Virus record (IMG/VR): IMGVR_UViG_3300046007_001549
Reading direction: 5' to 3' (one strand)
Source: an uncultured virus (IMG/VR IMGVR_UViG_3300046007_001549)
Taxonomy: Duplodnaviria; Heunggongvirae; Uroviricota; Caudoviricetes
Length of the DNA stretch: 20,000 nucleotides
In this document: positions 1,596 through 20,000 of the stretch, one piece after another
How the letters are laid out: every line of letters begins with the position of its first letter
Position numbering within the stretch: position 1 is the stretch's first letter
Position numbers and translations under genes: made by a program
The notes under the pieces: generated by a model
Databases searched by the model: none
What the model was told of the DNA's origin: nothing
The model's input: only the letters and a program-made list of their open reading frames with translations

Positions 1596-3476
1596 ATGGA
1601 TACATTCCAACAATTCATTGCAGTCAGCCGATATAGTCGCTGGCTACCAGAATCAAATAGACGAGAGACTTGGGACGAGACAGTAGATCGGTGGTGGAAC
1701 TACTTCACTACGAAGGTTCCCTTCCTATCAGAGCGCCCAGACATTCGGGATGCAATTCTAAATCTAGAAGTGCTGCCTAGTATGCGTGGTCTTATGACCG
1801 CAGGGCCAGCTCTTGATAGAGATCATACTGCTCTGTACAATTGCTCTTATCTGGAGATTGATTCAATCCAATCATTCTCCAACCTAATGTATATTCTAAT
1901 GTGCGGTACAGGTGTAGGCTATAGTGTCGAACGCCGCTGCACAGATAAGTTATCTACTATCCCAACAATCAACAAGCAGTTTGATACTGTGATGTATGTT
2001 GAGGATAGCCGTGAGGGATGGTGCGATGCGCTTTATCAGCTCATCGACAACCTCTACAAGGGTAATCATTATAAGTGGGACACAAGTAAGGTGCGTAAGT
2101 CTGGCGAAAGACTTAAGACATTCGGTGGTCGTGCAAGCGGCCCCGCTCCACTTGAAGAAGTGTTCCGCTTTGTTACTCAGACATTTTACAAGGCACAAGG
2201 CAGGAGACTATCTCCGCTAGAGTGCCACGATATCTGCTGCAAGATTGCACAGTCAGTCATTGTGGGTGGTGTACGCCGCTCTGCCATGATTAGCCTAAGT
2301 GATCTAGCCGACAGAGAGATGGCTACTTGCAAGAGTGGTGCGTGGTGGGAACAATCAAACCACCGCGCTTTAGCGAACAACTCAGCTGTCTACAATGGTA
2401 GACCATGCATGGGTCAGTTCCTAGAAGAATGGACAGACTTGTTCAACTCACACAGTGGAGAGCGTGGTATCTGCAATAGAGATGCCATGAAGGAGATTGC
2501 AAAGAAGGCAGAGCGAGATCCTGATATCATGTATGGCACAAACCCATGCAGTGAAATCATCCTACGCCCCAATCAATTCTGTAATCTATCTACTGTTGTT
2601 GTCCGCGCAAGCGATACACCAGAGACTCTTGCTAAAAAGATTGAGATGGCAACAATCATTGGTACAGTACAAAGCATGTTCACTCACTACCCCTATCTGT
2701 CGAAGATGGATAGTTCGTGGGAGAAGAACTGCACAGAGGAACGACTCCTTGGTGTATCAATGACAGGTATCTTTGACAACAAGCTTATGTCTGGTCTACT
2801 AGGCCACGGCAAACTAAAGCATGTTCTCAGTAACCTGAAAGAAACAGCCATCAAGACAAACCTTGATTGGGCTAAGAAGCTTGGCATTAATCCAAGTAAG
2901 TCAATCACTTGTATCAAGCCAGAAGGAACTACTTCATGCTTGGCTAACTCAGCTAGTGGGCTTCATCCACGATACTCTGACTATTACTATCGTCGGGTTC
3001 GTATTGACAAAAAAGATCCACTATATACAATGATGCGAGATGCTCAGGTTCCAGTAGAAGATTGCGTAATGAATTCCGCATCGACTGCTGTGTTCACCTT
3101 TGTTCAACGATCCCCTGCAGGATCGCTAACCCAAGACGAGCTGCTTGCTATTGACCATCTTGATTTATGGCTTGCTTATCAAGAATACTACTGTCAGCAT
3201 AAGCCAAGCATTACTGTCAATTACTCAGATAATGAGTTCCTTCCAATCGGTCAATGGGTTTGGGATAACTTTGATAAGATCTCAGGCATCTCATTCCTAC
3301 CTAAGTCTGATCATGTATATGCTCAGGCTCCGTTTGAAAGAATTGACGAAACTACTTTTAAAGCATACACCCATGTTGATGTTGACTTTAATCTTTTATC
3401 TCTATACGAGAAAGAAGATATGACAACCAGCTCACATGAGATGGCTTGCACTGCTGGAGGATGTGAAATCAAATGA
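1596..3476 (+). CDS. nrdJ: Class II (adenosylcobalamin-dependent) ribonucleotide reductase, monomeric RTPR-like
   Basis: SRYSRW...RRETW N-terminus, YNCSY, GGVRRSA, TNPCSE (thiyl Cys), FCNL, KPEGTTS and a C-terminal CTAGGC redox pair. There is no ATP-cone and no adjacent small subunit. Confidence 0.92.
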   Translation: MDTFQQFIAVSRYSRWLPESNRRETWDETVDRWWNYFTTKVPFLSERPDIRDAILNLEVLPSMRGLMTAGPALDRDHTALYNCSYLEIDSIQSFSNLMYILMCGTGVGYSVERRCTDKLSTIPTINKQFDTVMYVEDSREGWCDALYQLIDNLYKGNHYKWDTSKVRKSGERLKTFGGRASGPAPLEEVFRFVTQTFYKAQGRRLSPLECHDICCKIAQSVIVGGVRRSAMISLSDLADREMATCKSGAWWEQSNHRALANNSAVYNGRPCMGQFLEEWTDLFNSHSGERGICNRDAMKEIAKKAERDPDIMYGTNPCSEIILRPNQFCNLSTVVVRASDTPETLAKKIEMATIIGTVQSMFTHYPYLSKMDSSWEKNCTEERLLGVSMTGIFDNKLMSGLLGHGKLKHVLSNLKETAIKTNLDWAKKLGINPSKSITCIKPEGTTSCLANSASGLHPRYSDYYYRRVRIDKKDPLYTMMRDAQVPVEDCVMNSASTAVFTFVQRSPAGSLTQDELLAIDHLDLWLAYQEYYCQHKPSITVNYSDNEFLPIGQWVWDNFDKISGISFLPKSDHVYAQAPFERIDETTFKAYTHVDVDFNLLSLYEKEDMTTSSHEMACTAGGCEIK

Positions 3477-4105: not shown

Positions 4106-5680
4106 ATGGAATCACTAGCAGATCGTTTTAATCTGCTGCATGGACAGAGGCAATCTAAACTGACAATCGGACGGGCTTGTGCTTCATTGACAATCCCATC
4201 TCTTCTTCCCCCAGAAGGATGGACCGAAGACCAGCAACTGCCTCAGCCTCATTCATCAGTCGGTTCGCGTGGAACTACAGCATTGGCAAGTCGAATGCTG
4301 TCTGCTATGATTCCACTAAATGATACTCCCTTCTTTAAGTTTACCTTACGGAATGGTGCAGAACCCACTACTGAAATTCAGCAGTATCTAGAAACAATGA
4401 GCTATCAGGTCTTTAGAAAACTGATGGCTACTAATTTAAGAGAAACAACTTATCAAGTTCTCCAATCACTAATCGTTGTTGGAGATGCTTTGGTTCATGT
4501 TGAAGATGATTTTAAACTACGCACTTCTCGTCTGGATCATTATGTTATTCAGCGTACAGTAGAAGGTGATGTACAAGAAATTATTACTGTAGAGTATGAG
4601 CTTAAAGATCCCACGGTTGCGAGTTATCCAGCTTCAGTTCCTGTTTCTGAAAAGGCAGGATATGAAAAGGTCTACTGTCAGTACATGTACGACAAAGACA
4701 ACAAGCTATGGATGTACCGCAAGGAAGATTCTGATGGCGAAGTAATTGCAGAGGGACAGTACGAAGTACTTCCTGTTGCGGTTGTTCGTTGGTATGGAAT
4801 CCCCGGTGAGAACTATGGACGCTCTCACTGTGAAGATAACTTTGGTGATCTTCAGAGTTTAGATGCTTATACTAAGTGCCTTATTGATGGCATGGCAGCT
4901 AGCACAGCTTTCTGGATGGGACTAGATCCAAGTGGTATTACTGAGATAGATGATATCTCAGATCAGCCAAATGGTTCTTGGGTTCCTGCCCGATCACAAG
5001 ACATTGCTGTAATATCACCCAGTCAAACCATGAACCCACAGGTATCGTCAGCACAGGTAGCTGTGCAGACAATGCGACAGGAGTTAGGTAATTCATTCCT
5101 AATGACAGGCGCATCTCTACCTACTGGAGATCGTGTTACAGCCACAGCAGTACGAATGATCGGATCAGAACTAGAAACAATTCTAGGTGGCGCATTCAGC
5201 GCCATTGCCAGAGATCTTATGTCTCCAATCCTACGAAGATTCGTCTTCCTTATGATTGAGAATGAAGACTTAGACAAGAGAATGTATGAGCAGTTCTTTG
5301 ACAAGGATGGCACTCTTAGTGTTGAGATTGTCACAGGATTGCAGGCATTGTCCCGTGATACTGATCTTCAGCGACTACTCCAGATGGGTGAAATGGTTCG
5401 CAACCTACCACCAGAAGCACAGGCTGCATTTAAATGGAGCGAATACGCTAAGGCTTTAGTAACTGCATTAGGATTTGACTCACGCAATTGGGTTATCTCT
5501 GAGCAAGAAGCTATGGCTATGCAGCAACAGCAGCAGATGGCACAACAACAGCAAATGATGCAGCAGCAAATGATGCAACAGGCTGGCAATGTTGCTGGTC
5601 AAGCCGCTATGCAGGATGTGCAGCAAACAGGTGGGCAAGGTATTGCAGAAGTACTTGGCAACCTAGGAGTACAAGCATGA
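4106..5680 (+). CDS. Portal (head-to-tail connector, T7 gp8-like)
   Basis: LTIPSLLP, S.G.RG...LASRML, P..PFF, RWY.IPGE.YGRS, RVTAT.VR, LETILGG and EIVTGLQALSR motifs, 524 aa, Q/M-rich tail. Confidence 0.95.
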   Translation: MESLADRFNLLHGQRQSKLTIGRACASLTIPSLLPPEGWTEDQQLPQPHSSVGSRGTTALASRMLSAMIPLNDTPFFKFTLRNGAEPTTEIQQYLETMSYQVFRKLMATNLRETTYQVLQSLIVVGDALVHVEDDFKLRTSRLDHYVIQRTVEGDVQEIITVEYELKDPTVASYPASVPVSEKAGYEKVYCQYMYDKDNKLWMYRKEDSDGEVIAEGQYEVLPVAVVRWYGIPGENYGRSHCEDNFGDLQSLDAYTKCLIDGMAASTAFWMGLDPSGITEIDDISDQPNGSWVPARSQDIAVISPSQTMNPQVSSAQVAVQTMRQELGNSFLMTGASLPTGDRVTATAVRMIGSELETILGGAFSAIARDLMSPILRRFVFLMIENEDLDKRMYEQFFDKDGTLSVEIVTGLQALSRDTDLQRLLQMGEMVRNLPPEAQAAFKWSEYAKALVTALGFDSRNWVISEQEAMAMQQQQQMAQQQQMMQQQMMQQAGNVAGQAAMQDVQQTGGQGIAEVLGNLGVQA

Positions 5681-5982
5681 AGAAGCGATTAGATAAAAGC
5701 AAGATGGCTTGTAATCGACCACAAAAGTCTCCCAAGGCTGGCAAAAAGAAAGTCGTTAAGGCTTGTGCCAATGGTCAGGAAAAGATTATTCATTACGGAG
5801 CAACTGGCTACGGTCACAACTATAGTGCTGCTGCTCGTAAGTCTTTCCGTGCAAGACATGGATGCGATAAAGCCAAGAACAAACTAACCGCTAAGTATTG
5901 GGCTTGCAAGAATCTTTGGGCTGGTCCCGGTGGTTCAACTGCAAGCTGTCCCAAGGGACGCAAGTGCAAGAAAGGTAAGTAA
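5677..5982 (+). CDS. Lysine-rich, Cys-containing 101-aa protein with RKSFRARH.C...A.YW.C motif
   Basis: ATGA overlap with the portal stop and SD AGGAG. 22 K + 6 R against 3 acidic residues, 6 Cys. Resembles an uncharacterised small basic viral protein family (from recall, not searched). Confidence 0.85.
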   Translation: MKKRLDKSKMACNRPQKSPKAGKKKVVKACANGQEKIIHYGATGYGHNYSAAARKSFRARHGCDKAKNKLTAKYWACKNLWAGPGGSTASCPKGRKCKKGK

Positions 5983-8617: not shown

Positions 8618-9301
8618 ATGGGATTCATTACAAAACTACAAGCAGTTAATCAGATGCTGTTGGCCGCTGGTGAAAACCTAGTAGCTGACCTTGTTAATGA
8701 CAGCGGTGTCGATACAGGCATTGCTGAAACACTGCTAGATCAAATCTCTCTTGACTTTCAAATGAGAGGGATGGCAAACAACAAGTACATTAGAGAAGTA
8801 ATTCCTGATCCAATCTCACGCAAGATTTACCTACCTTATGGTAATGATGATGATGAGCAAGGAGTTATTTCTGCTGAGTTGGTTTCACTACATTATAATG
8901 AGAAGGGGCAAATCATTGTTGCCCGTATCAATTATGAGGGTAATAAACCTATTCTTTGGAATATCACGGATGATACTGGTATTTGGTCAACCACACCAAA
9001 GTATTATCTTGAAATGATTATGAAACTTCCTTGGGAACTTCTGGATACACCAGCACAAAGAGCTATTCTTGCCACAGCAATGCGGCATTATCAGGCTATT
9101 ACCCAAGGCGATCCTGCAACCGACCAGTTCCTAGCCCATCAAGAGGCTTTGTTTGGAGCTAAGGGTCGCGCTGCAGACATCAACGATAAGAAACGAAACA
9201 TCTTTGAATCAGGAGACTCTGCCGTTAAAGCAGCAGTCAGAAGAAATCCATATATCAACGACCCTAATAGGTTTAGATTCTGGAGAACAAGAGGTATCTA
9301 A
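8618..9301 (+). CDS. Tail tubular protein A (T7 gp11-like adaptor)
   Basis: T.L.AVN.ML.A.GE N-terminus, LPWE.L..PAQ motif, SD AAGGAGG, position after the capsid. Confidence 0.9.
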   Translation: MGFITKLQAVNQMLLAAGENLVADLVNDSGVDTGIAETLLDQISLDFQMRGMANNKYIREVIPDPISRKIYLPYGNDDDEQGVISAELVSLHYNEKGQIIVARINYEGNKPILWNITDDTGIWSTTPKYYLEMIMKLPWELLDTPAQRAILATAMRHYQAITQGDPATDQFLAHQEALFGAKGRAADINDKKRNIFESGDSAVKAAVRRNPYINDPNRFRFWRTRGI

Positions 9302-12300
9302 TGGCAATAAGAAGAACAAGCCCACGCGCTGGTCTGATAAACACCCGTTTACCAGTACCAACCATTAATAGTGTTGGTCGTAACGCACCAAACAAGAGAG
9401 CTGCTTATGAAGCACAGAACCTTGACAATTGTTTTGTATCATTAGAGCGAAACTTTGAAAAGCGTCCCGGTTTTGAAGTTGTACCACAGTACACAATTCC
9501 CGACATTACCGATTGGGATTTTAACCAGCCTCAAACAAGAGTGGATTTGTTCCCATTAGATGGATTAGTTGCTCTTAACCACGATCTATGGTACTACTGG
9601 CACAACATTAACGAAGAGACTAGGTTCTTGATCGTCGTAGATTACTCTGCACGAACCAATGAACACAATCTTTATTATGTATTTCAGTTACTTCCTAATG
9701 GAACATGGAAAGACCGAAGCCCCCAAGGTCAATCAGCTGATGCAATCAATGGAAGCTTTCCAGAAACCACAGTTCCTGCTAAGACCAGAGCTTATCTAAC
9801 CTTTGGATCTGATACTAGTGATCTAGGTACAGCAAAGACTGCTAAAGAATCCTTGCAAGCGGTATCATTAGGAACAAACATTATCATTCTAAACAAGAAT
9901 GTATATGCTGGTTTTTCTTCAGATGATGATGGCTTGTTATTTAATCTAGATGGCACTAAGGGAACCGAAGAAGATGTAGCTGGTAAGAAGGTTACTTATT
10001 ATTCATCAGCTCAGGTTATTCCAATCTATGCTAGTGGTTCGGATTACAAGACTAAAGAAGACGATGTGTTCCTTGGTTATAAGCCAGCGACTACTGCTGT
10101 TGGTGGTAGTATTAAATCTACTACAGTTTTCTCTGAGTCACCTCTTGTTGTTGACTTTGAACTGCAGCCAAGCCCTTCTGAAGTTTCTGGAACCAATCCA
10201 ATCTCTGCTATCTCTTCTACCTATAACGGATATAAGCTAGAGATTCCAGAGATTAATGCATCAGGAACTGTTCAGCAATACTTTGGAGATACAAAGATTG
10301 CAAGAGTTTTATGGACAGGCCAACTTCCACAGGATAACGCAACTATTGTTACTGCTCCAACTAGAGTTGATGCTGTTACTTATGAACTAGTTCCAACAGT
10401 TCATACTTCTTATGAGTTTGAATTAGGAACTAATGCTTCTACTACAGCTAACTTTTACCGTAACCAAACCATTGAAATAATGAATGGTTCTACTGTCGTT
10501 GGAACAGCTACAATCTATTCCTACAATAGTGTTACCAAAAAGATCAGAATTAAAAACTGGAGTGGTCCTAGTAATATTGTATCTGGAACTGCTTATCGTA
10601 TTAAAATTGTTACTACAATAACTTTTATGGGCCGGACTTCTGTACAAACTACTTATTATCATGGTAATATTCCTGCTACTCTTACTTACATTAACCCAAC
10701 AAACGATAAACCTTATAACCTAACTCCAGTTACTTACTCTGTAACTCTAGATTCAAGTGCTTCAAGCACCAATGATTTCTATAAGAACTATCAGCTTGAT
10801 GTGTTATTTGTAGCAACTCCCGGTTCTGGTTCTGTAATTAAATACACTGGTTCAACTAAGCAAGCTATCGTTACTGATTGGACAGGAAGCGCCCCATTAA
10901 ACGGTAATGCTGTTAACATATCAATTAAAAGCTATGCCTTCTCATTAAGTTCGACTGTCACAGCAAAGCATATTCCTGTTGAAGATTATAAATACTTCCA
11001 GAATTCTCTCGCTTATCTTGGACAAAGACTTAATGATGCAAGTGAAATCCGTCTTCCACCTGAAGTAGATGATTGGTACAACACCAATAGTAACGGCAGT
11101 AACAGCGTGGCTGATGTTTCAGCACAGCGCATGCTTGAATTGCTATATGATCCTTTCCATCCCTATGGAAACTACAATGGAAAGAATCTCGTTGGTGGTC
11201 GTGGTAAAGTTTATTACTGTCAGAACCCCTTCCTAAACCTAACAAGTGGATACTATCGTGTGATTTCATGGAGAGAAGACACACCAGCACAGTACTACAA
11301 CTTTACTCTACCTCCCAAGATCACTGCTACTGGTGTAGAAGCTAATAAGATTATTCCATTTGGCAGACCATATCTTCAAAAGATTCGTACTCCAGATAAG
11401 TGGTCATACATAGACCCCAATAGAATGCCTCAGAAGATTTCTCTACTGCTTGGCGCTAACTCTTTAGAGTGGTCTATCGGTCCTGTTCGCTGGACTCCAC
11501 GGCAGTCTGGTACTAATGATACCAATCCCGGTCCTTCTGTATTCAGAACGACAGATCGAAAGCAAATCAAGCAGACTCCTCTTACTAGCATCTGTGTATT
11601 TAAAGACAGACTATGGTTTGCGGCTGATGATGTTGCATTCTCTTCTCAAATTGGTAAGTACGAGAGCTTCTTTATTGAAGACCCTGCCAACATTATTGCT
11701 ACAGATCCTATTGATATCCGTGCTTCTTCAAATGCATTTGCTCAGATTACTCACATGACACCATTTGAAGACTATATCTTTATCAATACAAAAGCAAACA
11801 TTCAGTTCCAGCTCACAGCTGGCTCTAAGGATGCCAACGATCTTGTGCTTACACCCTTCAATGTCATGTTGTCTCCAACAACTTACTATGCTGCGGTGTC
11901 CTTTGTTGATCCTCAGACCATTGGATCACAGCTTTACTTCTTTGACCGCCGAAAACTATATCTATTTACAGGTAAGAACAACCTTGGATATAGTTCAGCA
12001 GTTGAGGTTTCAAGCCAAGCCCAAGACTATCTGCCTGAAAACTTTGGATTTGCCTGCACAGGGCCAGCTCAGAACACAATCTTTGTGACTGATGCTGATA
12101 ATGAAAACATGATTTATATGTACACGGTTCGCTTTAGTGGTGAGCGTGTAATCCAAAGTTCATTCTATCGCTATGTTCTGGATTCAGAGTCTCTAGTAAA
12201 CAGCATGCAAGTTTACAGTAACTACTTGTATGTCATTATTGCTAGAAACAATAAGGTTGTTATTGAGCGCACTCTACTTCAGAATGAAAAGAATGATGTA

Positions 12301-13377
12301 CCACGAATGGATCATATGTTTAAGATCAAACTTAACTCTGACATTGGTGGTGAAGAACTAAATGTAACTTATTCAGATAGTTCTAACATTAGTTATGTTG
12401 CTTTGAATCCAACCACAAGCAAGGTTCACAGCGCACAGGTCGAAGTGGAGCGTATCTTTACCGCAGATAGAGATGGCGATTCAACTATCATTACAGATTT
12501 CTTAAACGATCCTAATGTAAGCATTGCCGATAAAGCAGCTTTGTTTATCATTCCTAATGATCGTCTATTCTTTAATGAACTAGCAAAAGAAATAACCAGC
12601 ATTAATCTACCAGCTACTGGTGATGTGTATGACTTTGTTTACACTCCAATTGGTGGGCCAAATACTGGAATACAACAAACAATTAAAGTTCCCGGTCTAA
12701 GTAATGGTCAGTCCCTTACTTTACGCCGCTTGAATGAACCTAATGTAACTTACAATCCCGGTCTACATGAAACAACCTTTAGACTACCAGCAGCAAACTA
12801 TGGTGTTAACGACACCTTTAGGGTTGTTGTTGCTAAGCCTTGGGTAAACGACCCCAACTATCTTGCTCAAGAAGGACTACAGCCTGAAGATCTGGTCGGA
12901 ACAGCGTTCCCTCCTCTTGTATCTATCAGTTCAGATGGTAACTATCTGAATGTAGTCGTGCTAGGCAAGTATGATTTTGATGACAACTATGTTTATATCG
13001 GCAATCCATTCACAATGACTGTCGAATTAAGCCCCTTGTTTGTCCGAGATCAAAATGGCGGTATTGTAGATGGTGTACTTAAGTTACGAACAGGTGTCTT
13101 CCGGCATTTCAACACAGGTAATTATGATATTGTAGTTACTCATAGAGGTCGAAACCCATTAGTTTCTTCCTTTACTGCCATTAGACCAGATTTCACCCTT
13201 GCTGAAGATAGCCTTCCACTAGAACCCTATGAAGGCCAAGGAGAATTTGTTGCCAAGGTTTTTGGTAACTCAGATTCAACCAATATAAAGATTGTATCTG
13301 ACTACATTACTCCTGTAAACATCTCAACAATGGAATTCAAAGGTACATTCAAACAGAAATACTCTACAATTAATTAA
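9301..13377 (+). CDS. Tail tubular protein B (T7 gp12-like nozzle), enlarged by insertions
   Basis: NC...LE....KRPG N-terminus, W..R..G....NP.PS, FKDRLWF, DPIDI and YIG.PF.M.VELSP motifs. 1358 aa against about 800 aa for T7 gp12. Confidence 0.9.
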   Translation: MAIRRTSPRAGLINTRLPVPTINSVGRNAPNKRAAYEAQNLDNCFVSLERNFEKRPGFEVVPQYTIPDITDWDFNQPQTRVDLFPLDGLVALNHDLWYYWHNINEETRFLIVVDYSARTNEHNLYYVFQLLPNGTWKDRSPQGQSADAINGSFPETTVPAKTRAYLTFGSDTSDLGTAKTAKESLQAVSLGTNIIILNKNVYAGFSSDDDGLLFNLDGTKGTEEDVAGKKVTYYSSAQVIPIYASGSDYKTKEDDVFLGYKPATTAVGGSIKSTTVFSESPLVVDFELQPSPSEVSGTNPISAISSTYNGYKLEIPEINASGTVQQYFGDTKIARVLWTGQLPQDNATIVTAPTRVDAVTYELVPTVHTSYEFELGTNASTTANFYRNQTIEIMNGSTVVGTATIYSYNSVTKKIRIKNWSGPSNIVSGTAYRIKIVTTITFMGRTSVQTTYYHGNIPATLTYINPTNDKPYNLTPVTYSVTLDSSASSTNDFYKNYQLDVLFVATPGSGSVIKYTGSTKQAIVTDWTGSAPLNGNAVNISIKSYAFSLSSTVTAKHIPVEDYKYFQNSLAYLGQRLNDASEIRLPPEVDDWYNTNSNGSNSVADVSAQRMLELLYDPFHPYGNYNGKNLVGGRGKVYYCQNPFLNLTSGYYRVISWREDTPAQYYNFTLPPKITATGVEANKIIPFGRPYLQKIRTPDKWSYIDPNRMPQKISLLLGANSLEWSIGPVRWTPRQSGTNDTNPGPSVFRTTDRKQIKQTPLTSICVFKDRLWFAADDVAFSSQIGKYESFFIEDPANIIATDPIDIRASSNAFAQITHMTPFEDYIFINTKANIQFQLTAGSKDANDLVLTPFNVMLSPTTYYAAVSFVDPQTIGSQLYFFDRRKLYLFTGKNNLGYSSAVEVSSQAQDYLPENFGFACTGPAQNTIFVTDADNENMIYMYTVRFSGERVIQSSFYRYVLDSESLVNSMQVYSNYLYVIIARNNKVVIERTLLQNEKNDVPRMDHMFKIKLNSDIGGEELNVTYSDSSNISYVALNPTTSKVHSAQVEVERIFTADRDGDSTIITDFLNDPNVSIADKAALFIIPNDRLFFNELAKEITSINLPATGDVYDFVYTPIGGPNTGIQQTIKVPGLSNGQSLTLRRLNEPNVTYNPGLHETTFRLPAANYGVNDTFRVVVAKPWVNDPNYLAQEGLQPEDLVGTAFPPLVSISSDGNYLNVVVLGKYDFDDNYVYIGNPFTMTVELSPLFVRDQNGGIVDGVLKLRTGVFRHFNTGNYDIVVTHRGRNPLVSSFTAIRPDFTLAEDSLPLEPYEGQGEFVAKVFGNSDSTNIKIVSDYITPVNISTMEFKGTFKQKYSTIN
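10150..10930 (+). repeat. Three degenerate ~60-aa beta-domain repeats inserted in tail tubular B
   Basis: L....S.....Y.(G/N)..(L/I)(E/D).......G.(V/I)..Y.G.TK.A.V..W.G pattern at about 10150-10350, 10411-10605 and 10735-10930. Confidence 0.7.
12361..12752 (+). repeat. 381-nt in-frame insertion bounded by direct repeat AATGTAACTTA, paralogous to the fiber N-terminus
   Basis: Repeat copies at 12361-71 and 12742-52. The encoded segment aligns with 13509-13814 at about 55/102 identities (hand alignment). Confidence 0.85.
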
Positions 13378-13391
13378 TAAATGGAGACACC

Positions 13392-16300
13392 ATGAGTTAT
13401 TCCAACATAACTGTTGTCACTTCGCAAGGTACTTATGGCTATTCTGTAGGAGCTACCACCTTCAATCCAATTCTTTATAACACATTGGATTTGATTCCCG
13501 GTATTCCTCACAATGCCCAATTAGAAGTTGAGCGAATCTTTTCTATTGATAGAAACGGCGTAACCGCCACGATTCCTGACTTCCTAAACGACACCAATGT
13601 ATCCGTAGTTGATAAACAGAATGTGTTTATTATTCCAAGTGATCGTATTACTTATGATACTACTGGAAACCGAATCGTAAATGTAAACCTACCCGCCTCT
13701 GGACCTGATGTATATAACTTTAGTTATGTACCAATCAGTGGACCAAATGCTGGTACTACTCAGACAATTGCTGTACCACAACTACGAGAAGGCGATAATA
13801 TTATTGTTCGCCGTAAGACTGTCAGTAATACTTCTTTAGTTCTTTGGACTCCCGGTAGCAAGCTAACAACTGCTCAGCTAAACCTGAACACAACACAGCT
13901 TCTATTCCTAGTTCAAGAAATTCTAAACAAGGTAACTATTGTCAGCGTCAGCACCGAACAGATTCTAGACAATGCAATTACTAGTCCTAAGATTCTAAAC
14001 AAGGCAGTAACTTTTGCCAAACTTCAGGATCTTAGTGGTCCACTAAAGCTTCTTGGTTCAGGTTCTGATCCTATTAACTTCCGCGATGTACGCGAGATGT
14101 CCGTAGGTCCGGGCTTTGATGTAACTGGTAACACTATTGATGTAAAGCCACTACCAGCTGGACAGAGAAACGATATTGAAGTCGTATCTCCACTTACAGA
14201 CTGGCGTATTAATCCCAATGCTGTTACTTATAGTAAGATGCAGGATGTCACCGCAGCCTCACGCCTTATTGGTCGTGGCTCTGCAGCTGGCTCAGGCGAC
14301 CCACAGGAACTTACTGTAGGCTCCAGCCTATCTATGGTTGGTACTCAGCTCAATGTAACTACGCCACTTACAGATGGTAACAAAGGCGACCTAACCGTTG
14401 GAAGCAATGGTACGACATTTACAATTAATACTGGTGCTGTAATTACTGCAGATCTAGCAGACCATGCTGTAACTTATGCTAAGATGCAGCTATCACTTAC
14501 TGGTAATCGTGTACTAGGCACAACAACCGCAGATAGTCATATCTCAGAAGTACAAATTAATGCTGATATGATTGCAACTGCGGCAGTAACCAATGCTAAG
14601 TTAGCAAATGGTTCTGTAAGTTCTTCAAATCTTCAGGCAGGGTCTGTCCTAACTAATGCTATTAACAACAACGCTGTAACTTACGATAAGCTACAGACAG
14701 TCGTAACAGCAAACCGTGTTCTTGGTTCTACCGCAGCAAACGGAACAGTATCTGAAGTACAGGTAAACACTAATATGGTTGTGGATAATGCCGTATCTTT
14801 CCCCAAGATGCAGCAGATTCCAAGCAATACATTATTAGGAAGAGCAGCATCTGGTACAGGCAATGTAGAAACCATTGCTATTACTGCTGCTGGTAGAGAG
14901 CTAATTGACGAAAACAGCGTAGCTGATATGCGTCAGTATCTCCAGTTAGGGACCGCAGCTTTAGAAGCTGTAGCTTTCTTTGCACCAGCTGTTCACAGCC
15001 ACGGCTCCATCAATAGTGCAGGACAGATTGGTACAACACCAAACCTTCCTCTCATTACTAGTTCTAATGGATTGATTTCTACTGGTACATTCGGCACAAC
15101 TGTAAGTACTTTCTGTCAGGGTAATGATGCTCGTCTAAGCGATGCTCGTACACCACTTGCCCATATCCATCCAATCTCAGATGTAACTAACTTACAGACT
15201 GAGCTAAATGCTAAGGCTCTTGTTGGACATACCCATGTTATTGCAGATGTAGCAAACCTACAGACAAACCTTGATAATAAGGCTGCTATTGCACATACCC
15301 ATACAATCGCTGAAGTAACAAATCTTCAGTCATCATTAGATGGTAAAGCAGCAACAAGCCATACGCATACTATCTCTCAGGTTACTAACCTACAGACAGA
15401 GCTAGATAATAAAGCCGCTGTAAGCCACACCCATACTATTGCCAATGTAACTGGTTTACAGACTGCACTAGATGGCAAGGCAGCTAGCAGCCATACCCAC
15501 GCAATGAGTGATATCACTAATCTTGATACCACCCTTGCTGGCAAGGCAAATACCACACATACCCACGCTATTGGTGATGTCACTGGTCTTCAAACCGCTC
15601 TAGACGCTAAGATTGATGACTCTCAAATCAGTGCGTTTGGTCTAACTCTTATTGATGATACAACCGCTGCTGCAGCCAGAACAACTTTAGAGCTAGGCTC
15701 TGCCGCTACACAGGCTTCTTCAGCCTTTGCAGCAGCTAGCCATACCCACACATTAGCAGCTATTACAGATGCCGGAACAGCAGCATCTAAATTTGCTCCT
15801 GCTATTGGAGTAAACGCAACCACTACTCAAGTTGTTATGGGTGATGATACTCGTTTAACAAATGCTAGAACTCCAACTGCTCACACACATGTTCTTGCTG
15901 ATATTACAGATGCTGGAACAGCAGCAGCTAAGTTTGCTCCAGCTGTTGGTGTAAATGCCACAACAACTCAGGTTGTAATGGGTGATGATACCCGTCTAAC
16001 AAATGCACGAACACCCACAGCTCATATCCATGTAATTGGTGATATCACTAATTTACAAACAACACTAGATGGCAAGGCAGCAACAAGCCATACACACTCA
16101 ACTACTGATATTACTTCAGGTACACTATCAGTTGCAAGAGGTGGTACTGGTGTTTCAACAACACCAACGGCTGGTCAGATTCTTATTGGTAATAACACAG
16201 GATTTACTTTAGCTAATATTCTTGGTGGTTCTAATATTGCAATTAGCAATACTCCCGGTGGTATTACAATTAGTCAGGTTGGTGAGCCAGTAGCACCTTC

Positions 16301-19300
16301 TGCAATTCTTGCGGATGGTACTTATGGTGATATTACAATTGCTGGCAATACTTGGACAGTTGTAAACAATGCTATTAGCGGTGCTAAGATTGCAAACGAT
16401 GCTGTCACATTTGGTAAAATTCAGAATATTAATACCAATACCGTACTAGGTAGAGCGACTGCAGGAACTGGCGATGTCGAAGAAATCACAGTAACCGCTG
16501 CTGGTCGTGCCTTGCTGGATGATGCTGATGCCGCCGCACAGAGGACTACCCTTGGTGCTGCTGCGGCCTCACATACTCATGCAATCAGTGATGTCACAAA
16601 TCTACAAGCATCACTAGATGCTAAGGTAGATGATTCGCAGATTTCTGCGTTTGCACTGACTTTACTTGATGATGCATCTGCTGGAACAGCTAGAGCAACT
16701 CTTGGTTTAGGTTCTTCTGCTACTCTAAATATTTCTGCACTAGGAGATGCTGCTAGTGGTGAGGTTGTTACTGGTTCCGATAGCCGTCTAACTAACGCTA
16801 GAACTCCAGTTGCACATACCCACGCAATTAGTGATGTTACAAACCTACAGGCTTCGCTTGATGCTAAGGTTGATGATTCCCAAATCAGTAGCTTTGCTCT
16901 AACTATTTTAGATGATACAGACGCTGCTAGCATGAGAGTAACTCTTGGTCTTGGTACAGCTGCTACTCAGGCTTCTACAGCCTTTGCTGCAGCTAGCCAT
17001 ACTCATACCATTTCACAGGTTACAAACCTACAGACAAGTCTTGATGGCAAGGCCAACACAGTACATAGCCATGCTATCTCTGATGTTACCAACCTTCAGA
17101 CAACCCTTGATGGTAAGACCAATGTTGGTCACACTCATGGTATTTCAAATGTAACTAACCTACAGACAGAACTAAACAACAAGGCCGCGCTATCCCATAC
17201 TCATGCTATCTCAGATGTAACTAATCTACAGACAGCTCTGGATGGTAAAGCAGCCAGTAGTCACACACATGTTATTAATGATGTAACTGGTCTACAGACT
17301 GCCCTCAACGGCAAAGTCAATACAAGTTCTGTAAGCACCTTTGGTGCAAGTCTTATTGATGATGCTACTGCAGCTGATGCCAGAACAACTCTTGGCTTAG
17401 GTACTGCAGCTACTCAGCCATCCACAGCTTTTGCTTCTGCTTCTCACACCCATAGCACTTCTGGTTATGATAATAACTCAGTAACCTATGCAAAGATTCA
17501 GAAGGTAGCCACAGCCAATCGGTTGCTTGGTTCTACTACAGCCAATGCTGATGTTGCTGAAGTACAGGTTGCCACAGACATGGTTGCAAACTTGGCAATC
17601 ACTGCTGGTAAGATTGCTGCTAGTGCTGTCGAAACCGCTAAGATTAATAACCTTGCCGTAACAAGTGATAAACTTGCAGACGGTGCTGTAACAAGTAATA
17701 AACTTGCAAACGGTGTAGTAACCTATAACAAGTTACAAACCGTTGCTACAGCCAACCGTGTACTGGGTTCTACAGTTGCTGGTGGTATTGTTGCTGAAGT
17801 TCAGATCAATGCCAACATGCTTGCTGATGGTCTAGTCACTACAGCTAAAATTGCTGATGGCAATGTCACAGCAGCTAAGCTAGCTTCTGGAGCAGCCGTA
17901 GCAAACATTGGTAACGGAAACATCACAACCGCATTGCTTGCGGATGCCAATGTAACCACAGCCAAGATTGCGAACCTTGCTATTACCACAGGGCTACTAG
18001 CCAATAATGCAGTAACCTATGGTAAGATGCAGGCTGTCGCTACCGCAAACAGACTCCTTGGTTCTACCACAGCTGGCGGTGCAGTTAGCGAAGTACAGGT
18101 TGCTACAGATATGGTTGTTGACTCTGCAATTACCGCAGATAAGTTAGCTACTAATGCCGTAACAAATGCTAAGATTGCCAGTAATGCTGTAACTACAGCT
18201 AAGATTGCTGATGGCAATGTAACACTTGCTAAGCTTCCACTAAGTACTACTGCTAACCGTGTACTTGGTACAACAACCGCTGGTTCTGCTTATACCGAAG
18301 TTCAGATTCAGACCAATATGATTGCCGATGGTGCAGTAACTGCAGCTAAGCTAGGTACACTCAGCATTGGAAACAGTCAGCTTCTTGACGATGCTGTCTC
18401 AACCAGTAAGATTGTAAACCTTGCGGTCACTGGTGCTAAGCTTGCAGACAATGCAGTAACCGATGCCAAGCTAAGAACAGGTGCAGCAACCTCCGTAATC
18501 GGTCGGTCTGCTAACACCGTAGGTAATGTTGCTGATATTGTTGCTTCTGTTGATGGACAAGTTCTCCATCGTACAGGCGGTACACTACAATTTGGTACAC
18601 TAGGTACTGGAAGTATTTCTGATGGTGCTATTACTCCTGCTAAGATTGCTAACATTGCTGCTAATCGTGTACTTGGTACAACATCAGGGACCGTAGAAGC
18701 TGTTCAGGTTTCTACAAACATGATTGCTGATGGAGCAGTAACTGCTGCTAAAACAAATTTTAAAGTTAAAAAAGTTACACAAGTTTTAACTGCTAGTTCT
18801 GGTACATGGACTGTTCCTAATAATATAACAAATATTACAGTTACGGTTTTTGGTGGAGGCGGTGGCGGTAGTCGCGGCGATCAAACTAACGGATTTCCAG
18901 TCTATCAACTTCCCGGTAAAAATGGTGGTTCTGGTGGCTTTGGTATTGTACAACTATCAGTAATACCCGGAAACAGTTATTCTTATACCATTGGTAGTGG
19001 CGGCACAGGTTCAAATTCAGGTACTGGTACTAATGGAGGAAGTACAACTTTCTTAGGTTTAACAGCAACAGGAGGGCTTGGTGCGTACGGCAGCGGTTCT
19101 TTTTCAATCGGATCTTTACCTTCTGGTGTAACTTTAGATCTAAATTTAACTTTATTTAGTAGTGCACCTAATACAGATATAGTCATACCAAATGCTCCTT
19201 CTGGTACTGCTCCTTCTACTTTTTCTCTAAGCAGCCTTTATCCACCCGGAGTTGGTGGTGCTGCTGAAAGTGGGCGGGATGCAAATAATGCCAGAGGTGG

Positions 19301-19343
19301 TATGGGTGGCGCTATTTGCATTGAGTATTTTGTAATAGAATAA
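13392..19343 (+). CDS. Long tail fiber (T7 gp17-type N-terminal anchor, repetitive shaft, glycine-rich C-terminal domain)
   Basis: IVRRKT....V.WTPGS.LT..QLN....QLLF.VQE anchor signature, AVTxAK and HTH repeats, and C-terminal SGTWTVP...ITVTVFGGGGGG glycine-rich domain. Confidence 0.92.
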   Translation: MSYSNITVVTSQGTYGYSVGATTFNPILYNTLDLIPGIPHNAQLEVERIFSIDRNGVTATIPDFLNDTNVSVVDKQNVFIIPSDRITYDTTGNRIVNVNLPASGPDVYNFSYVPISGPNAGTTQTIAVPQLREGDNIIVRRKTVSNTSLVLWTPGSKLTTAQLNLNTTQLLFLVQEILNKVTIVSVSTEQILDNAITSPKILNKAVTFAKLQDLSGPLKLLGSGSDPINFRDVREMSVGPGFDVTGNTIDVKPLPAGQRNDIEVVSPLTDWRINPNAVTYSKMQDVTAASRLIGRGSAAGSGDPQELTVGSSLSMVGTQLNVTTPLTDGNKGDLTVGSNGTTFTINTGAVITADLADHAVTYAKMQLSLTGNRVLGTTTADSHISEVQINADMIATAAVTNAKLANGSVSSSNLQAGSVLTNAINNNAVTYDKLQTVVTANRVLGSTAANGTVSEVQVNTNMVVDNAVSFPKMQQIPSNTLLGRAASGTGNVETIAITAAGRELIDENSVADMRQYLQLGTAALEAVAFFAPAVHSHGSINSAGQIGTTPNLPLITSSNGLISTGTFGTTVSTFCQGNDARLSDARTPLAHIHPISDVTNLQTELNAKALVGHTHVIADVANLQTNLDNKAAIAHTHTIAEVTNLQSSLDGKAATSHTHTISQVTNLQTELDNKAAVSHTHTIANVTGLQTALDGKAASSHTHAMSDITNLDTTLAGKANTTHTHAIGDVTGLQTALDAKIDDSQISAFGLTLIDDTTAAAARTTLELGSAATQASSAFAAASHTHTLAAITDAGTAASKFAPAIGVNATTTQVVMGDDTRLTNARTPTAHTHVLADITDAGTAAAKFAPAVGVNATTTQVVMGDDTRLTNARTPTAHIHVIGDITNLQTTLDGKAATSHTHSTTDITSGTLSVARGGTGVSTTPTAGQILIGNNTGFTLANILGGSNIAISNTPGGITISQVGEPVAPSAILADGTYGDITIAGNTWTVVNNAISGAKIANDAVTFGKIQNINTNTVLGRATAGTGDVEEITVTAAGRALLDDADAAAQRTTLGAAAASHTHAISDVTNLQASLDAKVDDSQISAFALTLLDDASAGTARATLGLGSSATLNISALGDAASGEVVTGSDSRLTNARTPVAHTHAISDVTNLQASLDAKVDDSQISSFALTILDDTDAASMRVTLGLGTAATQASTAFAAASHTHTISQVTNLQTSLDGKANTVHSHAISDVTNLQTTLDGKTNVGHTHGISNVTNLQTELNNKAALSHTHAISDVTNLQTALDGKAASSHTHVINDVTGLQTALNGKVNTSSVSTFGASLIDDATAADARTTLGLGTAATQPSTAFASASHTHSTSGYDNNSVTYAKIQKVATANRLLGSTTANADVAEVQVATDMVANLAITAGKIAASAVETAKINNLAVTSDKLADGAVTSNKLANGVVTYNKLQTVATANRVLGSTVAGGIVAEVQINANMLADGLVTTAKIADGNVTAAKLASGAAVANIGNGNITTALLADANVTTAKIANLAITTGLLANNAVTYGKMQAVATANRLLGSTTAGGAVSEVQVATDMVVDSAITADKLATNAVTNAKIASNAVTTAKIADGNVTLAKLPLSTTANRVLGTTTAGSAYTEVQIQTNMIADGAVTAAKLGTLSIGNSQLLDDAVSTSKIVNLAVTGAKLADNAVTDAKLRTGAATSVIGRSANTVGNVADIVASVDGQVLHRTGGTLQFGTLGTGSISDGAITPAKIANIAANRVLGTTSGTVEAVQVSTNMIADGAVTAAKTNFKVKKVTQVLTASSGTWTVPNNITNITVTVFGGGGGGSRGDQTNGFPVYQLPGKNGGSGGFGIVQLSVIPGNSYSYTIGSGGTGSNSGTGTNGGSTTFLGLTATGGLGAYGSGSFSIGSLPSGVTLDLNLTLFSSAPNTDIVIPNAPSGTAPSTFSLSSLYPPGVGGAAESGRDANNARGGMGGAICIEYFVIE
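14994..17453 (+). repeat. Coding repeats: 22-aa HxH units (SHTHxISxVTNLQxxLDGKA) and interspersed AARTTLGLG and DxRLTNARTP modules
   Basis: 66-nt periodic arrays at about 15160-15610 and 16990-17320. 20 HxH motifs counted (12 + 8). Confidence 0.9.
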
Positions 19344-19595: not shown

Positions 19596-20000
19596 ATGTC
19601 AATACTGCTACAGATCCGCATTAGGCGGGATACATCAGCCAACTGGACTGCTCAAAACCCAATCCTTGGATCGGGTGAGCTAGGTTTAGATACGACTCTC
19701 AATATCCTGAAAGTTGGTGATGGAACTACAGCATGGTCTACTTTGCCTGCTGTAGTTGGAGGTTCCGGTGGAGCCTCAGATCACGGAACCCTTAGTGGAC
19801 TGTTAGATGATGATCATCCACAATACCTTACTCAAGGTCGTGGCGATTTAAGATACTCACTATTGGGTCATACACACGGCACAGGTAGCATTCTAGACAA
19901 TGCAATTACCTATGCTAAGCTGCAGGATACTACAGCTGCCTCTGTCCTATTGGGCAGAGGTAGCACTGCAGCGGGTGATCCACAAGAAATAACTTTGTTT
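19596..20000 (+). CDS. Second fiber protein with Mtd_N-like N-terminal domain (3' truncated; absent from ORF track)
   Basis: MSILLQIRIRRDTSANWTAQNPILGSGELGLDTTLNILKVGDGTTAWSTLP matches the major tropism determinant N-terminal pattern. It continues with DHG.L.GL.DDDHPQY, HTH and an AITYAKLQD...LLGRG...GDPQEIT repeat shared with fiber 1. Open to the window end. Confidence 0.88.
   Translation, partial: MSILLQIRIRRDTSANWTAQNPILGSGELGLDTTLNILKVGDGTTAWSTLPAVVGGSGGASDHGTLSGLLDDDHPQYLTQGRGDLRYSLLGHTHGTGSILDNAITYAKLQDTTAASVLLGRGSTAAGDPQEITLF

Follow-up and report, generated by a model that had tools for sequence, protein, structure and literature searches.

The locus studied here raises the question of how a domain of the tail-fibre anchor came to lie inside the tail nozzle of a T7-like podophage, and what it may do there. 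The window, i.e., the whole stretch of 20,000 nucleotides that we analyzed (IMG/VR record IMGVR_UViG_3300046007_001549), is the structural region of such a phage, with portal, scaffold, capsid, adaptor, nozzle, fibre and a second fibre-type gene. The last four, and all features located within them, are on the plus strand. The adaptor, similar to T7 gp11 (8618..9301; PF17212, 43 bits against a cut-off of 22.3), is the candidate contact of the inserted domain. The nozzle gene, similar to T7 gp12 and carrying the insertion, codes for 1358 amino acids (9301..13377; PF25675, 182 bits against a cut-off of 27; phrog_457). It is followed by the main tail-fibre gene, of 1983 amino acids (13392..19343; Pfam and PHROGs), and by the second fibre-type gene, with an Mtd_N domain (Pfam), that continues past the window end (19596..20000). 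A small Lys/Cys-rich protein is coded between portal and scaffold (5677-5982; phrog_7595, resembling also part of phrog_220). Directly upstream of the structural module there is a class II (B12-dependent) ribonucleotide reductase (Pfam) with a second gene beside it (1596-3476 and 1059-1568), which we take from its motif to be dUTPase-like. No tRNA and no Rfam match were found.

A fibre-anchor barrel inside the nozzle

The original prediction was that a copy of the tail-fibre anchor domain is grafted into the nozzle protein, and the comparisons bear this out. The nozzle gene carries an in-frame insertion at 12361..12741 (381 nt between two short repeats, a net gain of ~129 amino acids over the sister clade), located at the start of the fibre-dock domain. 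It matches the N-terminus of the neighbouring fibre with 59 identities in 116 residues (51%, E 1e-38, BLASTP). The alignment first proposed ran from HSAQ (start 12427) to the last RR (end 12729), with its fibre counterpart at 13509-13814; these coordinates were rechecked and are right, and segment counts over its 101 residues sum to the ~54% identity claimed. It was too short, the homology to the fibre extending ~20 residues further upstream, so that the insertion is the whole barrel: a complete fibre-anchor-type beta-barrel with a helical subdomain, the barrel ending at 12729. Aligned with 31 fibres, it covers everything from the first to the last barrel strand and stops at the RR before the linker. 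It thus lacks the linker, the GS.LT loop and the helix, the last two as predicted.

The fibre itself (13392-13961) has the N-terminal barrel, GS.LT loop and helix of a T7 gp17-type anchor. Its barrel, the homologue of the insertion, was located at 13413..13814 by structural matches of a model of residues 1-190, and the linker, the loop (13851-13871) and the trimer helix occupy 13815..13937 (PF03906, 27.0 bits against a cut-off of 25.2, residues 132-181). The model of the fibre N-terminus (pLDDT 79.9, helix at 160-182) found T7-like tail entries, T7 gp17 included, as its ten best matches among 48161 chains, with Z between 6.6 and 8.7 and the next at 4.5; Foldseek put the same entries first, none at E 0.001. 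The insertion is homologous to the barrel of the T7 gp17-type anchor (PF03906) and differs from that anchor in being internal, in one copy per nozzle subunit, and in ending before the linker. The barrel of the fibre family of the window differs too, in its added helical subdomain. In this family (13392-13814 and relatives) the anchor barrel, at ~130 residues, includes a long hairpin and two extra helices, and the anchor escapes PF03906 except for loop and helix.

Some other features of the fibres in this group may be mentioned. In carriers of the insertion (13392-19343 in the window, and loci L001 and L002) they have 1898-2163+ amino acids, with His-rich PTR and DUF5907 repeats whose number and order vary between close relatives. 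Some relatives (loci L014, L015, L017, L023 and L029) have at least two other fibre-like genes between the nozzle and the anchor-bearing fibre. In L025 and P0180 the fibre gene has only ~158-160 codons and ends soon after the barrel, possibly by a frameshift or sequencing error; if real, it would be a free barrel.

The protein that received the barrel has the propeller, fibre dock and platform of a T7 gp12-like nozzle, in this order, and its gene lies between those of adaptor and fibre. T7 gp12 chains match it at E 7e-19, with ~170 residues here against ~25 in gp12 between propeller and fibre dock, where the extra stretch is found. Behind the insertion the native fibre dock is intact (12742..13008, from the gp12 alignment and the model, with the domain order after the available part of PMC6702177), followed by the platform or C-terminal part (13009..13374, from the gp12 alignment and structural matches). 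Removal of the insertion restores a normal-looking nozzle segment, as had been claimed: a spacer of 159 residues minus 127 codons leaves 32, inside the normal range. The structural comparison of the nozzle covered a model of the C-terminal 426 residues, of which the part outside the insertion aligns to solved nozzles with Z up to 15.0 over 254 residues. Propeller, dock and platform align with those of T7 gp12 and P-SCSP1u gp23 (PF25675; Z 14.3-15.0, 240-254 residues, rmsd 3.7-4.0), and the adaptor-nozzle-fibre gene order is common to all. Compared with these proteins, the nozzle of the window is ~560 residues longer and adds the fibre-type barrel before the dock and an accessory region in the N-terminal half.

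A search of 1.84 billion representative sequences with the C-terminal 426 residues of the nozzle gave 350 matches at E 0.001. Among the best 150 of the 350, 27 run through the insertion, each at the N-terminus of another protein, and the 25 with sequences retrieved are fibre-like. Otherwise, in the loci and proteins compared, the barrel matched only protein N-termini or cut fragments. The insertion has no Pfam or PHROGs family at E 0.1. An intein or other mobile in-frame element was considered and rejected, there being no splicing or endonuclease domain and the fibre barrel accounting for the whole length of the insertion. We conclude that the graft of a fibre-anchor barrel inside the nozzle is real and recent.

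Junctions, donor and distribution

The 17-nt direct repeats that flank the insertion, 381 nt apart and alike at 15 of 17 positions (88%), were confirmed as originally described. As DNA they add little to the match in amino acids, since that identity is reached in 8% of synonymous recodings (p ~0.08). The 3' copy (12736..12752) is the native first strand of the fibre-dock domain, aligning with the strand of empty-site nozzles (E217-220 in the model). The 5' copy (12355..12371), changed or decayed in L002 and L003, is nozzle-like in sequence and forms the first strand of the inserted barrel in the model (E87-91). Scored against 33 empty-site nozzles, its nine residues reach 12.2, compared to 12.1 for the 3' copy, and against the first strand of 30 fibres -2.4; they are joint top of the 77 Tyr-ending 9-mers in the protein, of which two unrelated ones reach 11.5-11.9. 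We take the nozzle-like scores as moderate evidence for a short duplication of nozzle strand. We infer that a staggered crossover doubled the strand, its 5' copy having since become the first strand of the barrel.

Two other explanations of the NVTY strands were tried and rejected. In the alignment with the fibres the 5' strand does fall opposite the T-[YW] of their first strand, but since it scores as nozzle-like we do not take it to be simply that strand. Homology of the nozzle fibre dock to the fibre barrel, which would make both NVTY strands equivalent, obtained a profile-profile probability of 0.1-0.2%, not above 13 control windows; sequence lends this homology no support, and the fold leaves room for it.

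As to the donor, the insertion is 33-50% identical to all fibres compared, own-type fibres being marginally ahead, and its best BLAST identity is 55%, to P0236. In trees (one fragment was left out of one, five rows out of the other) the inserted barrels have a long stem of 0.68-0.72 that branches outside the own-type clade, either weakly beside it (85/72) or with no clear position. AU tests reject none of three placements, with the own fibre (p 0.117) or with two other fibre clades (p 0.157 and 0.311). Segment-wise identities favour own-type fibres in the last third only, and the loop before the fifth strand has a length and motif common to the insertion and own-type fibres. What was described as a copy of the fibre is, by these comparisons, a homologue from the same fibre family, not necessarily from the phage's own fibre. 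The donor may be another fibre, and the claim that this phage's own was copied is not established, trees and AU tests fitting more than one source.

Nozzles with the barrel are rare. Two of the 88 nozzle clusters found with residues 900-1358 have it (P0001 and P0003), and nozzle domains occur in 2 of the 43 proteins found with the barrel profile. The spacer from PRxD to TTFRLP has 159 residues in the window and 158 in P0003, against 30 in P0004-P0008 and 33 in P0009; in some distant rows the right anchor was misplaced, and none combined a long spacer with a barrel match. The insertion reads in frame in loci L001, L002 and L003, and in frame in five distinct sequences. Empty-site alleles, proposed as a check on the original prediction, are present in the sister clade, with a core 77-79% identical; in L007 the empty site stands beside a fibre 77% identical in its N-terminus. 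A quick tree of 40 nozzle cores, with the dock left out, put the 3 carriers in one clade (support 98-99); their sister group has 7 rows, all of them empty-site, and is nested among further empty-site nozzles. Since the sister clade has empty-site alleles, the phylogeny shows that the insertion is derived, with one gain as the simplest reading. Run X1, the possible source of the window, has, besides, a diverged relative that is 384 bases shorter across the region.

A region search for further nozzles with the barrel gave 2 matches in 930 candidates, a weak negative because the search missed long fibres too. A metagenome scan with the insert region gave none in 128 stretches. Scans with the barrel profile gave 18 loci in viral contigs, 13 in metagenome contigs and 1 in genomes, all of them fibres except L003; the single genome match is a 3.9-kb contig in a metagenome-assembled genome. 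No match was found in 50,697 cultured phage records, nor any fibre-anchor family in long nozzles (Pfam on 30, PHROGs on 11). The window or part of it is contained in 20 of the 23 runs listed, most of them labelled lake water metagenome.

Fold, selection and the tolerance of the dock

The model of the nozzle C-terminus has a pLDDT of 78.4 and a pTM of 0.56, so low that it does not fix the position of the barrel relative to the dock. A check of the predicted fold, also proposed at the outset, found in this model that the insertion repeats the element order of the fibre barrel (pLDDT 71-92 per block), a result that is not independent, fibre barrels being among the alignment rows. The insertion alone matches several small barrels at Z 5.5-6.8; one match is chain A of the E1004 tail entry, which matches the fibre model too (residues 2-73, Z 5.7). 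The barrel is predicted to fold by itself with the dock intact beside it and its ends close together, which would leave the nozzle core undisturbed. A complex prediction with the adaptor (9-row alignment) and the insertion (19-row alignment) scored 0.02 and 0.00 against a mark of 0.32, in a setting where the controls did not fold, and bears on binding in neither direction.

The insertion is under purifying but relaxed selection. Over six pairs its dN/dS was 0.11-0.23; the flanks had 0.03-0.09 and the fibre barrel 0-0.04, and bootstrap intervals exclude neutrality (pN/pS CI 0.15-0.34). Between the window and L002 the dN of the insertion was 0.175 (95% CI 0.113-0.243), that of the fibre barrel 0.037 (0.016-0.067) and that of dock plus platform 0.043 (0.022-0.069); the interval of the insertion overlaps that of the upstream propeller stretch (0.065-0.153), so that the relaxation is clear only against fibre barrel and dock. 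Of 29 columns conserved in 39 fibres, 24 are kept in all 5 inserted barrels, and four of the five lost are clustered just before and in the third strand. Among the five carriers the C-terminal third is nearly invariant, and variation is clustered in the first strand region, the helical subdomain and the hairpin. At a near-saturated dS of ~1.5, the insertion is present in all sequences of the carrier lineage that span the site, as far as contigs, which drop rare variants, can tell. In an essential protein, such purifying selection reflects the need to fold and is no proof of a partner.

The dock has also received other domains. Its median length is 90 in the 178 nozzles with both anchors, and 11 of the 178 exceed 165 residues; a twelfth long row (P0163) was dropped as mis-anchored. 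The 11 long docks make up five mutually dissimilar families, and the barrel profile matches only that of the window. The four other insertions, unrelated and of 75-275 residues, are those of P0191, P0165/P0176, P0197 and P0037/P0040/P0041/P0042/P0047 (L038:719-4990). P0191 has, in the same loop as our insertion, ~275 extra residues that by eye resemble Ig-like structural repeats. P0165 and P0176 have ~190-230 in the next turn, presumably, again by eye, similar to a carbohydrate-binding jelly-roll. A second, unrelated accessory region of ~290 amino acids in the nozzle of the window (10102..10965) is absent from compact relatives and varies in length in the sister clade. It consists of a weakly repeated unit, with extra units in sister nozzles (1374-1475 aa); no Pfam family matched it, and its ESM Atlas leads were all below 0.9. 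From the alignments, the entrance of the fibre dock appears as an insertion-tolerant site. Given the five dock-insert families and the variable second region, domain gain is a habit of these nozzles.

Possible roles of the inserted barrel

We propose that the barrel of a tail-fibre anchor, from the fibre pool of the phage family, entered the loop that opens the fibre-dock domain of the nozzle by one recombination event, which took place in the common ancestor of the carriers, a small T7-like lineage of lake phages. A staggered microhomology crossover would have duplicated about six codons of nozzle strand at the junction. By the stoichiometry of T7-like tails, six extra barrels would then stand on the outer tail surface beside the 18 fibre barrels. 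Most probably each would serve as an accessory domain on the surface, one among several gained and lost by the nozzles of this clade. It would stay folded because it lies within an essential protein, it drifts ~2-5 times faster than the adjoining parts, and its influence on the posture of the fibre would be steric and loose at most. We give an even chance to the insertion being an accessory surface domain at an insertion-tolerant site. This agrees with its single derivation, with a dock that tolerates five unrelated families, with the relaxed constraint, and with a fold that is kept beside an intact core. Nozzle extras of this sort are known, as in PhiXacm4-11, where the extra domains have no apparent mutual contacts (10.64898/2026.02.16.706137; this and the papers on tails cited below are cited for their available parts). 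Other data speak against it. The insertion has persisted through all that synonymous divergence, although the flanking repeats could allow its clean loss, and its C-terminal third hardly varies; both would suit a useful contact. The overlap of its dN with the propeller stretch tempers the relaxation. Moreover, among the domains inserted in the dock only the barrel has its normal home at the adaptor-nozzle junction, and in cyanophage A4 one barrel does bind the dock (PMC12002296).

In solved tails the fibre is attached to both nozzle and adaptor through helices and a D-G-S-T-L loop (PMC10575957; 10.64898/2026.08.19.745834). Co-assembly with the fibre trimer, suggested in the original prediction, is not supported, because the trimerising helix and the nozzle-binding loop are the missing parts; lacking both, the barrel cannot join the fibre or bind like one by the known route, though a barrel site would still be open to it. 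A possible, if clearly less probable, alternative to the accessory domain is that the barrel keeps its inherited binding face and fills a barrel site at the junction as a fourth petal or brace, at the weakly used second adaptor dock, at the nozzle's own dock or at the side of the free third fibre barrel. It would clamp nozzle to adaptor, or control at which angle the very long fibre stands and how it is released. In P-SSP7 and P-SCSP1u it is the barrels, not the helices, that bind the adaptor; two are on adaptor docks, the second by a small, weak contact, and the third is free (PMC10575957; 10.64898/2026.08.19.745834). In A4 one barrel is on the adaptor, one on the nozzle dock and one points outward (PMC12002296). 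The fibre dock joins propeller and platform on the outer surface of the tail, where fibres fit between nozzle and adaptor docks (PMC6702177), and the insertion is right at its start. The conserved columns and the purifying selection also suit a brace, with the reservation that these columns include the fold core, so that their retention does not prove binding. Against a brace stand the rate of the insertion, which is 4-5 times that of the fibre barrel, the unrelated domains found in the same loop of the dock, and the sister clade (L007), which assembles similar long fibres with no insertion. A slightly less probable version is that the nozzle captured its own ligand, the graft standing as a fourth petal beside each fibre trimer and displacing or bracing a fibre barrel. 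If true, this petal would reset fibre posture or the fibre-to-nozzle trigger of DNA ejection, and one virion subunit would control by mimicry the partner with which it assembles.

A role as dock for a second fibre set, which the original prediction also considered, or for receptor-binding proteins, in the manner of the jelly-roll branching domains of CBA120 TSP4, we regard as improbable. The model of the insertion does align with TSP4 187-250, an XD jelly-roll (Z 5.5, rmsd 2.8, 63 aligned), a middling score that several other barrels equal. The A4 fibre barrel has been likened to the XD2 domain of TSP4 (PMC12002296), and SU10 docks its short fibres on a single nozzle loop (PMC9509320). XD2 and XD3 (CBA120 TSP4, G7C gp66) are small jelly-rolls with adjacent ends, used at attachment points, and the insertion matches their fold weakly. 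They are found in trimeric spikes, bind across the three-fold axis and dock their partners as trimers (PMC8825819), and the insertion, which has no sequence match to them, is in a six-fold nozzle whose one barrel per subunit would offer no trimer. A second fibre-type gene does exist in the window, but an Mtd_N homologue follows the fibre in the empty-site L007 as well (34/53 identities), so that this gene does not need the insertion; in carriers the genes behind the fibre were covered in part (window, L001), which leaves room for a further, carrier-specific fibre elsewhere.

Still more improbable is a role at the host surface, in which the barrel, freed from anchoring, would help adsorption as carbohydrate-binding-like or Ig-like nozzle domains would. 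The clustered variation among carriers would suit it, and an extra nozzle domain of P-SSP7 has been reported to contact host receptors. There is no sign of positive selection, with upper bounds of pN/pS at 0.34 and 0.51; the dock lies towards the head and not at the tail tip (PMC6702177); and no cell-surface binding activity was found for the barrel fold. An assembly chimera or non-coding relic, in favour of which nothing was found, is refuted by two copies ~50% different in protein, by the five in-frame sequences and by contigs of two runs, X6 and X8, each of which spans both junctions in one piece and neither of which belongs to the study of X1. Hence, of the original interpretation, the derived graft with its fold kept and no chimera stands, and co-assembly and the second dock are not supported.

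Decorated nozzles are known in SU10 (PMC9509320), A4 (PMC12002296), PhiXacm4-11 (10.64898/2026.02.16.706137), A1002 (PMC13730344) and also P-SSP7. Like that of the window, they have extra domains inside a T7-like nozzle, and SU10 and A1002 hold fibres with an extended fibre dock; in the available parts of these papers the extra domains are never described as fibre-anchor homologues. The literature searched, mostly non-subscription papers in their main text, describes no nozzle with a fibre-anchor homologue, nor do the available parts of 10.64898/2026.05.18.726046, PMC12407071 and 10.64898/2026.04.10.717836. The graft is apparently undescribed so far, a variant of the known decorated nozzle.

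The locus shows, in a clean and recent form, how a domain has passed from one tail gene to another, and both the filled and the empty allele survive, each in its own sister clade. With such a natural pair one can ask what role the fibre barrels have at the adaptor-nozzle junction, where in solved tails one of them hangs free. In nature the dock entrance has taken up several unrelated domains of 75-275 residues, which makes it a candidate site for displaying domains when the tails of laboratory phages are engineered. A defined partner of the barrel would mean a new way to tune fibre posture; if it has none, it is one more nozzle decoration, with an origin that is unusually traceable.
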